Source: a virus
Length of the DNA: 64,000 nucleotides
Strand: one strand, 5' to 3'
Virus record (IMG/VR): IMGVR_UViG_3300033143_001281
Location: 1-64,000 of that record
Under the pieces are notes generated by a model. It did no database searches. It worked only from the letters and a program-made list of their open reading frames with translations, and was not told where the DNA came from. Below, piece after piece: positions 18,975-39,384 of this stretch. A program made the position numbers and the translations under genes. Position 1 is the stretch's first letter, and each line of letters begins with the position of its first letter.

Positions 18975-19047
18975 CTGGTGTTAGCTATATACTGCAATTT
19001 ATTTTTAATTTTCATCAAATATTATAAGTTTATAATATAAAGTTTAC

Positions 19048-19062
19048 GTATATTATATATGT
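19048..19062 (+). promoter_or_regulatory. putative phage late promoter motif
   Basis: GTATATTATATATGT; related copies at 7304, 20408, 24189, 25850, 35182, 39422, 49301, 55869. Confidence 0.45.
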
Positions 19063-19095
19063 AACAAGTATTAATTATTTAAAACCAACATAATT

Positions 19096-20403
19096 ATGGC
19101 AACTGAAACACAAACTGTGAATAGTAAAGTAGAACAAGTAGATATTAATTTAGATGAAATATTTAACGCTGCACCTAGTGGCGCTGATATGATTCAAGAT
19201 GATAAGAAGCAGAAAAATATTTTTTCTGGAAGTTCTGCTAAAGCAGACTTTAGTTTTGCAGATCCTGATAAAGATGAAAAGGATGACCTAAATGCTAAAG
19301 TTGAAGCTAAAGAAGAAAATACTGAAAATGAAACAGAGGTAACAAATACCCCTGAAAATGAAACAGAGGTAAAAGAAACTGAAACAAAGGTAGATGATAT
19401 TATTGATTCTTTAAATGAAGTTGAAGAGGAAGATGATAAAACAGATGCACCAAAAAGAGGTAGAAAATCTATTTCTGGTATATCAGATGTTTTTAACAAA
19501 TTAATTAAAGATGATAAAATTGTTCCTTTTGATGATGATAAAGCATTAGAAGATTATACTGCTAAAGATTGGGAAGAATTAATTCAAGCTAATTTAGAAG
19601 AAAAAGCTAATCAAGTTAGAAGAGAAACCCCTAAACAGTTTTTTCAGTCTTTACCAGAAGAATTACAAATTGCTGCAAAGTATGTAGCGGATGGTGGTAA
19701 AGATTTAAAAGGTTTATTTTCTACATTATCACAGGTAGAAACCCATAAAAGTTTAGATGTAAAGAATGCTTCTGATCAAGAAAGAATCATTACAGAATAT
19801 TTATCTGCAACTGGCTATGGTACTACAGAAGAAATTGCTGAAGAAATAGAAATTTGGAAAGACTTAGGAAAGTTAGAACAACAAGCAAACAAGTTCAAAC
19901 CTAAGTTAGATAAGATGCAGGAAAAAGTTGTTGCTCAAAAATTAAAAGAACAAGAGTTAAAGAAAGCACAACAAGAGCAAGCATCAAAGGCATATATGAA
20001 AAATGTATATGATACATTAAAAGAAGGAAAATTAGGAGATATCAAAGTTGATAGAAAGACACAGGCTATGTTATATAATGGGTTAGTACAACCTAATTAT
20101 CCTTCAGTAAGTGGACGTAACACAAATTTACTAGGTCACTTACTAGAAAAATATCAATTTGTTGAACCAAACTACGGATTAATATCTGAGGCATTATGGT
20201 TATTGCAAGATCCAGAAGGATATAAAGCAAAAATTATGGATAAAGGTGCACAGAAAAGTGTAGAAAAAACAGTTAGAAAATTGAAGACTGAGCAATCAAA
20301 TGCAGGAGGAGCATCATTGGGTGTTAATAGAGCGGAAGCAGAAAGCAAAAGATCTTCAAAAAGAAAACTAAGTAGACCAACAAATATTTTTAAACGAATT
20401 TAA
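19096..20403 (+). CDS. acidic scaffold-like capsid assembly protein
   Basis: Between portal and MCP; very acidic N-half, coiled-coil C-half. Confidence 0.7.
   Translation: MATETQTVNSKVEQVDINLDEIFNAAPSGADMIQDDKKQKNIFSGSSAKADFSFADPDKDEKDDLNAKVEAKEENTENETEVTNTPENETEVKETETKVDDIIDSLNEVEEEDDKTDAPKRGRKSISGISDVFNKLIKDDKIVPFDDDKALEDYTAKDWEELIQANLEEKANQVRRETPKQFFQSLPEELQIAAKYVADGGKDLKGLFSTLSQVETHKSLDVKNASDQERIITEYLSATGYGTTEEIAEEIEIWKDLGKLEQQANKFKPKLDKMQEKVVAQKLKEQELKKAQQEQASKAYMKNVYDTLKEGKLGDIKVDRKTQAMLYNGLVQPNYPSVSGRNTNLLGHLLEKYQFVEPNYGLISEALWLLQDPEGYKAKIMDKGAQKSVEKTVRKLKTEQSNAGGASLGVNRAEAESKRSSKRKLSRPTNIFKRI
19321..19380 (+). repeat. 30-nt tandem duplication in scaffold gene
   Basis: CTGAAAATGAAACAGAGGTAA occurs twice 30 nt apart (TENETEV/PENETEV). 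Confidence 0.8.
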
Positions 20404-20465: not shown

Positions 20466-22041
20466 ATGGCAACTCCAGTTTTAAATAATGGGATTTTCCT
20501 AAGAGATACAAGCTATAAAGCTAGTTCTCATGTTGATTCGTATCACCTTACCCAAATGCTTGGTAATCCTGAGCCTATGGATATGGGACCAATTGATCTT
20601 TGGGCTATGACCCAAAAGGTAGAAATGCCTTTGTATCAAATGGCTTCTTTTGGTATGGCAAACTCCTATTGCACAAGACCTTCCTTACATTGTAGCTGAC
20701 ATTGAACCTGCTAACGCTAGCAAAGGTATTGATGGAACTACTTTTAAGATTAAGGTTAACAAGAGATCATTTGGTCATGGTGATATTATCACATATGACA
20801 AGTATAATGGTCTTGAATTATACATTACTGCGGATGATATTATCCCTGCAGGTGATGGTTTTGTTTATACAGTACAGTTGGTAAACAACAATAATAGTGC
20901 TGTATTAGACAACAAGTATCTTGCAAAAGGAACTAAATTCTTTAGAAAAGGTTCTGCAAGAGGTGAGTATGGTGAAAGATTTTCTGACATTGAAACAGGA
21001 TCTGGATTCCGTGAATTCTACAACTTTGTAGGAGGAGCTGAAGCACACGTACACTATTCTATTTCTAGCCGTGCTGATCTTATGATCAAAGGTGGTTTGA
21101 ATGCTGATGGTACTGTACCAGTAACTGAGATTTGGAGAAACTTTGATACTGACCCAAATAATCCATCTGTACCTAGTATTGAAGGATTAGTAGCATCTAT
21201 GGGTAAAGCTGGTGCAAGAGAAGCATTTGAAAATGGAACTCTTACACGTACTTTCATTACAAATATGGAAGCAGCACATTTATCTAAAATTGCTACAGAT
21301 ATTGAAACTTACCTCATGTGGGGGAAAGGTGGTAGAATTAAGCAAGACGGTCCAGATGATATTAGATTATCTGTTGGTTTATGGTCTCAGTTGGATAACT
21401 CATTTAAAAGAGTATACAACAAGTCATCATTTACACTTGACATGTTTAAATCTGAGCTTTACAACTTCTACCAAGGAAAAGTTGAATTCAAAGGACCAGA
21501 CCCACAAAGATCACTTGTTGTACAAACAGGTATTGGTGGTATGCAACTTATCAACAAAGCAATTGCTGATGAAGTATATGGTTCTGGTTTAGTTCAAAAT
21601 GCTACTGATGTTGGAGCTGTAACAGGTAAAGGCATGGATTTAGATTATGGTTTTGCTTACACAAGCTTTACTATTCCTTTCTTAGCTAACGTTAAGTTTG
21701 TATTGAATCCGGCATTTGATAACTTAAATACTAATGACATTGAGAATCCATTAATTGATGGAAGACCTCTAAGTTCATTTAGTTTTATCATCTTTGATGT
21801 AACTGATGAAGGTAATGACAACATTCACTTGTTGAAACTTTCTTGGGATAATCAACTTAAGTGGTTCTACCAAAATGGTACTATGGACTACATGGGAAGA
21901 ACTCAAGGATTTGCATCTACTGGACAGTTCAATGGATATAGAGTTTATATGACTCAAACCATGCCAGCTATATGGGTTAAAGATCCGACTAAAGTTCTAA
22001 AAATTGTAATGAGAAACCCTGTAACAGGAGGATCATTCTAA
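20466..22041 (+). CDS. major capsid protein, split by a +1 frame disruption at ~20655
   Basis: ORF 20466 (MATPVLNNG...YQMASFG) continues logically as WQTPIAQDLP... in the +1 frame; E.YLMWG, GLWSQL and VKDPTK crAss-like MCP motifs; strong terminator follows. Confidence 0.85.
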
Positions 22042-22112: not shown

Positions 22113-22310
22113 ATGGCACTAGATATTAAAAGACAAAACAAAACATATGAATTTTCAAATTCAAGTGTTTCTAAAATACTTGCTTCTAAAGCAGTTGGTA
22201 CGGATATCTTAGCAAGAGACCATGCAGATGATGCAGCAGCAAAAGCTGCAGGTTTAGCAAAAGGTGATTTATATCACACAGCTGGAGCTTTGAAGATAGT
22301 TGTTAGTTAA
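22113..22310 (+). CDS. small virion/decoration-like protein
   Basis: HADDAAAKAAGLAKGDLYHT.G.LKIV motif recalled from phage fibre C-termini. Confidence 0.65.
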   Translation: MALDIKRQNKTYEFSNSSVSKILASKAVGTDILARDHADDAAAKAAGLAKGDLYHTAGALKIVVS

Positions 22311-22323
22311 AGTCAAAAACTAT

Positions 22324-22345
22324 AGCAAGGGTAATACCTTGCTTT
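22324..22345 (+). terminator. stem-loop
   Basis: AGCAAGG-GTAATA-CCTTGCT-TT. Confidence 0.5.
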
Positions 22346-22427
22346 AGAAATATTAGTAATAATAGAATGTACACTATGGTGTATTATTTGACGCAAGTAA
22401 TAATTATTAATTTTTAAAAACCACAAA

Positions 22428-25885: not shown

Positions 25886-26461
25886 ATGGCAAGCAGACAT
25901 ATATTAAGTTTAGAAATTCCCACAGTATCTAACTGTGATTTATTGTGTATAAAAGACACTAGTCAATATTCTAAAGAATTGGCTGTTGATTGTGAAGAAT
26001 TGTTGATAACCTTACCTGGTTATTCGGTACCTGTTTTAATAAAAGTTGATAAAGATTTTGATATGTGCTTAACTGCATGTACTCTTTCTTTACAAAAAGA
26101 AGACTGTGGAACTAAACAATCACAAATTCCTGATGGTATTTACATTATAAAATATAGTGTATCACCTAACTCTAAAGTGTATGTTGAATATAATCATTTA
26201 AGAGTAACTAAATTACTAACTACTTATTATGAAGTATTGTGTGATTTAGATGTGCAAGCATGTCAGCCAGATTCTGATAAACAGGAATTATTATCAGAAA
26301 TGTATTATATAAGAACTATAATTGATGCGGCAGTATCTAATGTTGAATATTGCCAATCATCTGCACAAGGTATGCAGTTATATAATTATGCAAAACAAAT
26401 GTTAAACAAGATATCTTGTCCATCAGGCAACTGTGGATCAAGCTCAAAATATTTAATATAA
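25886..26461 (+). CDS. Cys-rich structural protein
   Basis: IPDGIY.IKYSV Ig-like motif, many Cys. Confidence 0.65.
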   Translation: MASRHILSLEIPTVSNCDLLCIKDTSQYSKELAVDCEELLITLPGYSVPVLIKVDKDFDMCLTACTLSLQKEDCGTKQSQIPDGIYIIKYSVSPNSKVYVEYNHLRVTKLLTTYYEVLCDLDVQACQPDSDKQELLSEMYYIRTIIDAAVSNVEYCQSSAQGMQLYNYAKQMLNKISCPSGNCGSSSKYLI

Positions 26462-26473
26462 ACCAACAATAGA

Positions 26474-26656
26474 ATGGCAAATTGTACCAAATGTAATAAA
26501 GTATTTACTTGTGGATGTCAAAAAGCTAGATCAAGTACAGGTGAACTTGTTTGTAAACCATGTGCAGCTAAAGAAAGAGCTGAAATGGATTTATCATCAA
26601 GAGATTTATCTTTAGAGTTAGCTAAACAACAAATACAAGATTTAAGAAATAAGTAA
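26474..26656 (+). CDS. small Cys-rich zinc-binding protein
   Basis: CTKC...CGC...VCKPC. Confidence 0.65.
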   Translation: MANCTKCNKVFTCGCQKARSSTGELVCKPCAAKERAEMDLSSRDLSLELAKQQIQDLRNK

Positions 26657-34824: not shown

Positions 34825-34858
34825 TTTACTATATTTGTTAATATAAAAACCAAATAAG

Positions 34859-35113
34859 ATGGCTAAAGCAAAAACAAAAAAGGCAGCTAAATCAATTACA
34901 GCTGCAGAGTTAAAAGAAGTACAAGATGTTCAGACAACACTTAATCAAGTTATTTATAACATAGGTGCTGCTGAAATAGCAACTCAGAAATTGCATGAAG
35001 CTCATGCATCTGCAAATGCAAAATTTCAAGAAGTTACTGCAAAACTACAAAAAAAATACGGTGAGGTTAATGTAGATTTATCTACAGGTAATATTACACC
35101 AATAGAGGCATAA
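34859..35113 (+). CDS. small coiled-coil protein
   Basis: L..KYGEVNVDLSTG.I motif; TATATTTG promoter element at 34830. Confidence 0.65.
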   Translation: MAKAKTKKAAKSITAAELKEVQDVQTTLNQVIYNIGAAEIATQKLHEAHASANAKFQEVTAKLQKKYGEVNVDLSTGNITPIEA

Positions 35114-37468: not shown

Positions 37469-38032
37469 ATGGCATGTAATTGTACAAAATGTAGTCAAAA
37501 GTGTAGCTGTGCTGATACAGCATTAACAAACCCGTGTACTTATACTGATTGTAGTGTGGGTAGCGAAAGATGTGATGATGTACAGTGTGCTGCATGTGTA
37601 AGCTATTGTGGTACATCTTTTAAGATAGGTGATACTGGTAGTGAAATAGTTATAACTTCTGGTGAAAGATTAGATTCTATTATTCAAAAGTTTGCTATGA
37701 TATTAGCAAATGGTTTGGGTGCTTGTACATCAAGTGATTTACAGCATGATCCATATAATGTTTATGCTGGTGTTATTACAAGTAGTACAGCAGAAGTAAT
37801 ATGGGATGGATTGTGGAGTTCAAGTACTGGAGTAAATATATATTTAGATACTCAAATAGCTCCTGGAGGATGGGTATTACAAAACTCATCACCTATTGCA
37901 ACTACAATAAATAATTTTCAATTAACTAATTTAACAGCAAGTACTGCATATAAAGTAAAAGTTGTTGATAATGGGAATAGTGCGGCATGTAAACCAATAG
38001 AGATTTTATTCTCAACATTAGCGGCATCATAA
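37469..38032 (+). CDS. Cys-rich protein with FN3-like C-terminus
   Basis: Dense Cys N-terminus; LTNLTASTAYKVKV. Confidence 0.7.
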   Translation: MACNCTKCSQKCSCADTALTNPCTYTDCSVGSERCDDVQCAACVSYCGTSFKIGDTGSEIVITSGERLDSIIQKFAMILANGLGACTSSDLQHDPYNVYAGVITSSTAEVIWDGLWSSSTGVNIYLDTQIAPGGWVLQNSSPIATTINNFQLTNLTASTAYKVKVVDNGNSAACKPIEILFSTLAAS

Positions 38033-38080
38033 AAAAAAACAACAAGTGGTGGTTTGTTGGTTTTTCTACTACAAACGTTG

Positions 38081-38113
38081 GGAGAGACTGGGGTGACTCA
38101 GTCTCTTTTTTTT
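38081..38113 (+). terminator. intrinsic terminator
   Basis: GAGAGACTGGG-GTGA-CTCAGTCTCT followed by a T run. Confidence 0.85.
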
Positions 38114-38163
38114 ACAATTAAATAAAAATGCTTATTTTTACATAAATCCTAATTAAAACTTTT

Positions 38164-39384
38164 ATGTCAAATTATTTAAAACAAAGAATCATTGAAAGCC
38201 TCAAATGGAAAAAACATCCCTCATATTGTGCAGATAAATTAAATATTACAGAATCACAATATACCAAATTAAAGAAGCAAATATTACAAGAAAGAAAGAA
38301 GGATAAAAAGAAAGATAAATTTTTTAGTAAAGCTGCAGATAATGCTCAATTAGTTGAATCAATAGATTTAGAAAAAGGTGAAGGTAAAATATCTGGTACA
38401 TTTGATCATGAACCTAAAAGTGCTGAAGAAATTATTAAACTACTTAAGATAGATACAAACAAATGGAAGCTATCACAATATTGGAATAAACAAATGGGTG
38501 ATCACTGGAGAGTTTCTGCATTAATTAGTCAGATAAAAAATCCAGATGAAAAACATTTTGAAGAGCTTCTTAAAAATTGGAAACCTCAGCAATATAAATT
38601 ACCAAAAACTAAACTAAATAAAAAAGGAGAAAAAGTTTGTGGTGTTATGTCATTACAAGATATTCATTTTGGTAAACAAGGAAATGAAACTATTGATAAA
38701 GATTTTGAGGAAACCATTATTAATTTATTAGAAAGAGCTACACCAGCACATAATATTGAAAAGATGTATTTTGTTGTAGGAGGTGATCTAATCAACATGG
38801 ATACATTTGAGGGTACAACTACAAGTGGCACAGGATTAGATAATTGTATGACAGCTACAGATGCGTATATACAAGCATTTAATGCCATGCATTGGGCTAT
38901 TGGTTATATAAAAGCTTTCTGTAAAGAACTAGTTATAGTTTATGTACCTGGTAATCATGATAGACTTTCTTCATTTCATTTAGTTCATGCTCTATCACAA
39001 TCTATAAATAGTACTGAAATTACTTGGGATATTAAATATGAAGAAAGAAAAGTTCATGTGTGGTATAATAATTTTAATGCATTTGAACATGGTGATAAAA
39101 GAAGTAAAAATAATCCATTAATATATGCATCCGAGTATCCTAAAGAATGGGGTCAGACAGTTAATAGAACTTTATTCAAAGGTCATATTCATACAGACAG
39201 AAAAGTAGAATACATGACATCTAATGAGACAGCAGGTTTTATAGAAAAGACATTACCTAGTCTAGGTAAAACAGATTATTACCACTATTCTAATAAGTAT
39301 GTGGGTAACAGAAGAACAGGTAAATTAGAATTACAGCATCCAACTTTAGGTAATATAGCTGAATTTGCACATCAAGTATTATAA
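38164..39384 (+). CDS. calcineurin-like metallophosphoesterase
   Basis: DIHFG, GGDL, GNHD, EHGD, GHIH motifs. Confidence 0.88.
   Translation: MSNYLKQRIIESLKWKKHPSYCADKLNITESQYTKLKKQILQERKKDKKKDKFFSKAADNAQLVESIDLEKGEGKISGTFDHEPKSAEEIIKLLKIDTNKWKLSQYWNKQMGDHWRVSALISQIKNPDEKHFEELLKNWKPQQYKLPKTKLNKKGEKVCGVMSLQDIHFGKQGNETIDKDFEETIINLLERATPAHNIEKMYFVVGGDLINMDTFEGTTTSGTGLDNCMTATDAYIQAFNAMHWAIGYIKAFCKELVIVYVPGNHDRLSSFHLVHALSQSINSTEITWDIKYEERKVHVWYNNFNAFEHGDKRSKNNPLIYASEYPKEWGQTVNRTLFKGHIHTDRKVEYMTSNETAGFIEKTLPSLGKTDYYHYSNKYVGNRRTGKLELQHPTLGNIAEFAHQVL

Follow-up and report, generated by a model that had tools for sequence, protein, structure and literature searches.

Does the hairpin that stands between the last gene of a late phage operon and its terminator work as an RNA, and if so, what does its loop recognize? 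crAss-like phages and their marine relatives are abundant, and their hosts translate without Shine-Dalgarno pairing. To our knowledge, post-transcriptional control has hardly been described in these phages, and the likely host phylum is, as far as we know, one without Hfq. The window analyzed here comprises positions 1 to 64,000 of a virus record 80 kb in length (IMGVR_UViG_3300033143_001281). A sequence-only reading of this window had drawn attention to an antisense-like hairpin followed by a terminator at 38040-38113, proposed that its loop is complementary to the leaders of several late genes, and grouped it with hairpins at 2929 and 2987 into a phage-wide system tuning translation or stoichiometry. 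We have examined the hairpin by comparative analysis across related phage contigs, and its proposed targets by analysis of the leaders in those genomes.

Phage, host, and position of the element

The window encodes a terminase, a portal, a major head protein, and giant virion proteins, a gene content of phage structural genes. The portal protein is ~23% identical to crAss-like phage portals, and the nearest cultured relative by this protein, Leptolyngbya phage Lbo-JY46, is 32% identical; these identities therefore point to a distant, uncultured lineage of crAss-like phages, here a marine one. Leaders in this phage are A/T-rich, and the Shine-Dalgarno word is absent from them. Related phage contigs have been binned with Flavobacteriales and Lacinutrix MAGs and also in gammaproteobacterial bins, and Flavobacteriia would appear to be the host. 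Four phage contigs of the same clade (L239, L242, L244, and L250, one of them 114,697 bp) lie inside MAGs labeled Gammaproteobacteria, Pseudomonadales, Flavobacteriales, and Lacinutrix; these bins are mutually inconsistent, and thus weak as evidence of a host.

The element is located at the end of a late structural operon, in the 3'UTR of the operon's final gene and ahead of the terminator. This gene (37469-38032, plus strand) encodes a 187-aa product with a weak match to "major tail protein" (phrog_4971, E=5e-6), and its orthologs precede the element in genomes G001, G003, and G005. Beyond the terminator, an exonuclease gene begins at 38164 and is preceded on the plus strand by a -7-like box, TATTTTTA (38133-38140), for which relatives have TATCTTTAC or TATATTTGG in the same place. 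The box was read by eye against the known consensus TAnnTTTG, which we take to be that of the Bacteroidetes-type -7 element, and it putatively marks the start of the next transcription unit.

Structure of the hairpin and terminator

The minimum free energy (MFE) structure of 38033-38113 (-26.9 kcal/mol) consists of exactly an outer helix (P1), an inner helix (P2), and the terminator, with the apical loop open. All of these features lie on the plus strand. P2 is a 7-bp helix including two G-U pairs, formed between GUGGUGG (38046-38052) and CUACUAC (38066-38072), and it closes the loop UUUGUUGGUUUUU (in DNA letters TTTGTTGGTTTTT; 38053-38065), whose 12-nt core, UUUGUUGGUUUU, is the candidate seed. 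The position and sequence of this stem and loop are as given in the sequence-only reading, which had nevertheless missed P1, the pairing of CAAC (38040-38043) with GUUG (38077-38080); a small A-rich internal loop lies between the two helices. The strong terminator that had been described directly after the hairpin was confirmed as well. It occupies 38081-38113 and has a 10-bp stem (38083-38092/38097-38106), a GUGA loop, and a U8 tail, so that it shows the GC-rich stem and direct U-tract, on the sense strand and after a gene, that are expected of an intrinsic terminator.

Because the loop could in principle pair with the A-tract just upstream, the earlier reading had allowed that it might be sequestered there. 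This was not borne out: the upstream flank, CAAC, is taken up by the 3' flank, GUUG, in P1, and the MFE structure keeps the loop open. Pairing of the loop with the A-tract was rejected on these grounds, and a pseudoknot between flank and loop would be sterically implausible. The mean unpaired probability of the loop is 0.73 in the window and 0.79 across 109 distinct elements from related contigs. The 36-nt hairpin taken alone is thermodynamically ordinary (z = -1.0), as 34 of 200 shuffles fold equally well, and the 101-nt region that includes the terminator reaches -28.5 kcal/mol (z = -4.7).

Conservation and covariation

Eighty loci were fetched around homologs of the downstream exonuclease gene, with protein identities from 61% to 100%. 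The 12-mer TTTGTTGGTTTT is found exactly once in every locus that reaches the intergenic region, with flanking stems that differ, and 79 of 79 loci have the same 12-nt loop core, as do further clades. Among 43 distinct copies, all 301 of 301 stem cells of P2 are paired, and compensatory changes on both sides have occurred at four of its seven pairs. These copies contain 65 or more G-U cells in P2 against 0 A-C, with G-U at pair 25-41 in 35 of the 43 sequences and at pair 22-44 in 17, a pattern that bears out the plus-strand specificity proposed for the stem. No shuffle out of 500 equaled the observed pairing or covariation score of P2, and shifted registers collapse. RNAalifold independently recovered the hairpin together with a covarying terminator. 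The terminator stem covaries freely among relatives, and in the predicted consensus structure as a whole, which has 18 pairs across hairpin and terminator, double changes are seen at 11. The pairing, covariation, and G-U tolerance of P2 therefore indicate a plus-strand feature that has been selected in single-stranded form.

Searches seeded with more distant exonucleases reached clades in which the neighboring protein is at ~55% identity. The inner stem there is GUAGAG/CUCUAC and the loop is larger (A/GUUUUUUUGUUGGUUUUAA), with its core unchanged; the loop core thus holds down to ~55% identity of the neighboring protein while the stems vary. P1 also differs by clade (CAAC/GUUG, UAAC/GUUG, AGCG/CGCU, ACGA/UCGU, and AAACAA/UUGUUU), with pairing kept in each type, and the presence of two conserved flanks in the window's clade is explained by the pairing of CAAC with GUUG. 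The varying length of the internal loop kept MAFFT from placing P1 in register, so this helix was counted by a script. A flank helix of at least 4 bp is present in 95% of the 109 distinct elements accepted as true copies, and the mean helix length is 4.19 for the real partners versus 3.94 for shuffled ones (maximum 4.12 in 200 shuffles). Only two loop variants occur among the same 109 elements.

The element thereby displays the covarying conserved structure and strand specificity that mark structured non-coding RNAs in general, and we consider it almost certain that it is a genuine structured RNA. The hairpin is judged real because of its comparative pairing and covariation, not because of its folding energy on its own.

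Distribution of the element

A stem-agnostic pattern search located the element in 111 IMG/VR stretches, with one copy per contig, and the distant clades contribute ~25 further copies, which brings the total to more than 130 contigs of related phages. Only one copy is present in each of the whole genomes examined. Screening of 185,579 prokaryote species genomes revealed no host copy: 15 of the 19 matches are without the hairpin and are ascribed to chance, and the remaining four are phage contigs binned into MAGs. Searches of Rfam identified no family at its gathering score in the window, and sub-threshold matches in 37980-38170 were far below the cut-offs. Cultured phages gave no DNA match in either near or distant mode, with the 86-nt element yielding chance matches only. 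Small shares of the sequence words were found in marine metatranscriptome runs. For the hairpins at 2929 and 2987, which the sequence-only reading had placed in the same system, the neighboring genes have poor or no orthologs in the fetched genomes.

A separate observation concerns the record IMGVR_UViG_3300030098_004828 (245,646 bp; loci L393 and L398), which carries two differing copies of the exonuclease gene plus element, ~130 kb apart. Two related phages have probably been joined in this record, as a chimeric or concatenated assembly.

A phage leader motif complementary to the loop

Leaders, defined as the 25 nt before start codons, were collected by simple ORF calls in 12 genomes belonging to three clades. 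Among specific 7-mers, AAACCAA is the most enriched, present in 25 of 369 leaders from four genomes versus 2.06 expected, and in 8 of 303 leaders of the distant clade versus 1.14 expected. The word shows no enrichment among 338 leaders taken from two Flavobacteriia MAG contigs, where the candidate-host sets of 137 and 201 genes contain it once each (0.7 and 0.9 expected), on self-called ORFs and in bins that may differ from the true host. Its position is constrained, in that AAACCA starts at -12 to -14 from the ATG in 37 of 75 occurrences while A-only control hexamers are spread out, and the transition variants AAACTA and AAATCA form a small peak at the same place. The CCA of the motif falls at about -8 to -10, the place that a Shine-Dalgarno box would occupy. 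A phage-encoded bS21 was sought in five genomes as a possible cause of this phage-specific leader, with no match.

The surroundings of the motif suggest a second possibility. A TTAAT-like box precedes it in 26 of 65 cases versus 18% in controls, and upstream of the 338-aa gene (339 aa in the window) the arrangement is TTTG-N17-TAATTTTT-AAAAACCA, which, on our understanding of the consensus, resembles a Bacteroidetes-type promoter. In view of these two features the motif may be a promoter or start-site feature that lies at or just upstream of the transcription start, with part of it perhaps untranscribed. If transcription starts at the first A of the motif, the loop would pair with the extreme 5' end of short-leader mRNAs.

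Candidate targets

All four leader matches named in the sequence-only reading are present in the window, each on the plus strand, and duplex energies were predicted for them. Two of these matches are 10 nt in length with a predicted energy of -11.7 kcal/mol: that of the 435-aa gene following the portal (start at 19096), where AAAACCAACAUA (AAAACCAACATA) lies at 19081-19092, and that of a 60-aa gene at 26474, where AAACCAACAA lies at 26460-26469. The leader of the 339-aa gene (22428) contains AAAAACCACAAA at 22416-22427, matching over 8 nt plus a bulge (-9.4 kcal/mol), and the leader of an 84-aa gene at 34859 contains AAAAACCAA at 34845-34853, matching over 8-9 nt (-8.1 kcal/mol). The leader of the major capsid protein is without the motif, and its predicted duplex is only -5.2 kcal/mol. 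The 435-aa and 339-aa proteins had no match in Pfam, PHROG, or PDB, and the label "scaffold" that had been given to the former is a guess from gene position only.

Orthologs of the 435-aa gene (~430 aa) carry the motif in the 12 genomes examined, with the core AAAACCAAC in the window's clade (40 distinct upstream regions) and UUAAAACCAAA in the distant clade. The leader of this ortholog is the best loop match in 10 of the 12 genomes, and its complementarity to the loop extends over 8-12 nt in those ten and in G006. Upstream of the 338-aa gene, A(3-7)CCA is found in 43 distinct upstream regions, and for both genes the leaders of the orthologs carry the motif in every clade. As a further observation, leaders with 12/12 complementarity to the canonical loop right before the ATG, AAAACCAACAAAAUU-AUG and AAAACCAACAAAAA-AUG, were found in G006 (L335:6681-6705) and G008 (leader of the 4453 gene).

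Specificity of the loop-leader complementarity

Complements of the loop are concentrated in leaders, where its 8-mer complements occur at 4.4 per kb versus 0.19 per kb in coding sense sequence. Against permutations of the loop itself (U9G3), which preserve its composition, the outcome depends on the length of the match. Matches of 10 or more nt number 11 versus a permutation mean of 2.25, and 6 of 219 permutations are equal or better; for 9 or more nt, 48 of 219 permutations do as well; and for Watson-Crick matches of 8 or more nt, the 36 leaders observed compare with a mean of 22.6, with 46 of 219 permutations equal or better. When loop-leader duplex energy was compared with 200 of the 219 permutations, the fraction matching the mean of the top five was 0.005, 0.045, 0, and 0.015 in four genomes. 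Ranked among all sense-strand 12-mers, the loop is in the top 0.2-4% in clades 1 and 2 and is unremarkable in clade 3, the most distant one. The composition-matched permutation values of p ~0.03-0.2 are moderate only. The test of contiguous matches is a weak one because any permutation that keeps UUGGUUUU captures the motif, and a loop made only of G and U should tolerate every transition in its target.

The two loop variants behave differently from each other. The G007 variant, with an inserted U, matches its own CCAAAU leaders over 10 nt versus 8 nt for the canonical loop, and the G006 variant (...GGUAUAU) matches its own leaders over 9 nt versus 12 nt for the canonical loop, the leaders of G006 having kept the canonical motif. 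Taken together, these comparisons show a genuine complementarity that is specific to the top leader word, though of moderate strength and not statistically overwhelming. The proposal that the loop is antisense to phage leaders is thus partly upheld, as regards an accessible loop, a phage-specific motif, and a recurring match at the 19096 ortholog, and less so by the permutation controls and in clade 3.

A proposed base-pairing regulator and its rivals

The reading we favor, at a probability of about 0.4, is that the element is a 3'UTR-borne base-pairing regulator whose loop targets the leader word AAAACCAAC in a small regulon of phage genes. This is the best-supported explanation, and it fits the seed-like conservation and accessibility of the loop, the terminator fused to the element, and the best target that recurs among genomes. 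Under this model, termination, possibly followed by cleavage in the A-rich stretch behind the stop codon, would leave a ~75-nt 3' end shielded by the terminator. The loop would serve as the seed, pairing with (U)AAAACCAAC(A) some 8-16 nt upstream of the start codon in a few phage genes, foremost the ~430-aa gene after the portal, then the ~338-aa gene and several small genes. On ribosomes that do not use Shine-Dalgarno pairing, such a duplex would occlude or alter the ribosome landing zone, and the translation or stability of the target mRNAs would shift as late transcripts accumulate. Accumulation of the RNA, its pairing in the cell, and the sign of its effect are what we infer from these patterns. 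The 12-nt core has, by its unpaired probability and its invariance, the accessibility and high conservation expected of a seed. Several points count against the model: a U9G3 loop pairs readily with A-rich leaders, the change in the G006 loop is not mirrored in its leaders, the capsid leader is without the motif, and the motif may be a promoter or start-site feature.

A variant to which we give only a slim chance would have the loop act as a positive, trans-supplied partner and not as a simple repressor. It could be a surrogate "anti-leader" that escorts ribosomes and may guide them to chosen phage mRNAs, the host anti-Shine-Dalgarno sequence being sequestered, or it could titrate RNA polymerase as a 6S-like mimic of the open template strand of late promoters. 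The loop is the only complementary partner to the motif among the genomes searched, and its sequence is that of the template DNA strand at motif-bearing start regions.

The main rival to a base-pairing regulator, doubtful in our estimation yet ahead of the other alternatives, is a protein-recognition element, in which a conserved RNA-binding protein of the host or the phage (for instance a nuclease, a chaperone, or ribosomal protein S1) reads the invariant loop on its stable stem and stabilizes, processes, or localizes the 3' end of the late mRNA. In that case, U/G versus A/C composition would account for the complementarity to leaders as a side effect. An invariant loop across very divergent phages, on stems that drift, is what a protein recognition site would look like; the merely moderate complementarity statistics under composition-matched nulls and a G006 loop variant without matching leader changes are also in keeping with it. 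However, the analysis yielded no candidate protein, and this explanation does not account for why the top enriched leader word is the complement of the loop, or why the best match recurs on the same orthologous gene across genomes. Less likely, and in our view improbable, is that the hairpin tunes the adjacent terminator through pausing or factor recruitment, for example, thereby setting the level of readthrough into the genes for the exonuclease and virion proteins. The element never occurs apart from the terminator, whose stem directly adjoins the 3' strand of P1, and the U-tract offers an alternative pairing partner to the GG of GUUGG. Yet the terminator is strong by itself, the downstream gene is served in all relatives by a promoter-like box of its own, and control of termination would leave the invariant 12-nt loop sequence unexplained.

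The strand asymmetry, with G-T tolerated and A-C never seen, would fit any single-stranded plus-strand nucleic acid, and the single copy per genome would suit a plus-strand DNA hairpin that acts as a priming or single-strand initiation signal in replication through recognition of its loop. We regard such a signal as very unlikely, since the constant place of the element between a stop codon and an intrinsic terminator, transcribed in the sense direction, points to RNA; there are no adjacent replication genes or origin-like repeats, and two G-T pairs would make a 7-bp DNA stem weak. A chance hairpin without function would be consistent with a lone hairpin no more stable than its shuffles, but it is refuted by the covariation, the invariant loop, and constant synteny over more than 130 contigs, leaving it a negligible probability.

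Relation to known regulatory RNAs

DicF of prophage Qin is an example of the base-pairing small RNAs that derive from 3'UTRs or are processed from operon transcripts. Like RNAs of the DicF type, the element is a short RNA that ends a polycistronic transcript, has a candidate seed followed by a terminator, and is proposed to pair at the translation-initiation regions of other mRNAs. Unlike them, it presents its seed in an apical hairpin loop rather than in a single-stranded 5' part, it would act in a host phylum that is probably without Hfq, its proposed targets carry a phage-specific motif that is not a Shine-Dalgarno sequence, and it is known here from sequence. The c4 RNA of P1 and P7 and the sar RNA of P22 are phage antisense RNAs that block ribosome binding, and c4 is cut out of a longer phage transcript. 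The element resembles these in being a structured phage RNA with an exposed loop complementary to the ribosome-binding regions of phage genes. c4 and sar, however, act on one immunity gene in temperate phages, whereas the element, in a lytic crAss-like phage, is proposed to act on several genes, late or structural, and its complementary motif is shared among leaders and not unique.

The staphylococcal small RNAs RNAIII and RsaE use C-rich loops (UCCC) to pair with Shine-Dalgarno sequences (GGGA). The element would share their Hfq-independent logic, with a conserved unpaired loop for a motif upstream of many start codons, but its loop is composed of G and U only and reads an A/C motif, and there is no sequence or family relationship: against the RsaE family the element scores 17.6 bits versus a gathering score of 79, and it is not a member. 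The class, phage regulatory RNA, is a known one, and the motif, its lineage, and the non-Shine-Dalgarno target word are new. A compact, covariation-supported motif with an invariant loop and a candidate target motif provides a hypothesis that can be tested with reporters. If correct, it would give this phage group its first described regulatory RNA and would exemplify gene-specific translational control built on a non-Shine-Dalgarno leader word. If the antisense idea fails, the element would still stand as a new conserved RNA of phages, and its partner would merit a search.

Other features of the window

A tRNA-Arg(TCT) gene is located at the left end of the window on the minus strand (13-87). 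The major capsid gene (20466-22041) consists of two overlapping frames, 20466-20699 and 20650-22041, and its orthologs in G003 and G005 are single ORFs of 539 aa. The change of frame occurs near the run cttcttttgg at ~20645-20655 and may be an assembly indel or a programmed shift.

The regions upstream of two of the candidate targets contain additional conserved features. Upstream of the 435-aa gene, 18975-19095 is conserved in blocks among 40 distinct relatives: GTTAGCTATATACTGC, AATATT(A/T)TAAGTTTA, and TTATATTATATATGTAAG. The relatives' counterparts of this region are L434-L513, and the first block, GTTAGCTATATACTGC, is an operator-like box. Upstream of the 339-aa gene, 22310-22427 and the corresponding regions L514-L593 contain a hairpin with covarying stems (AGCAAGG/CCTTGCT, GTCAGG/CCTGAC, and GCCAGG/CCTGGC), followed on its 3' side by the palindrome GTACA-N-TGTAC and then by TTTGAC and an invariant ATTATTAAT box. 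The hairpin, the palindrome, and the TTTGAC/ATTATTAAT pair are probably a terminator, an operator, and a promoter, respectively.
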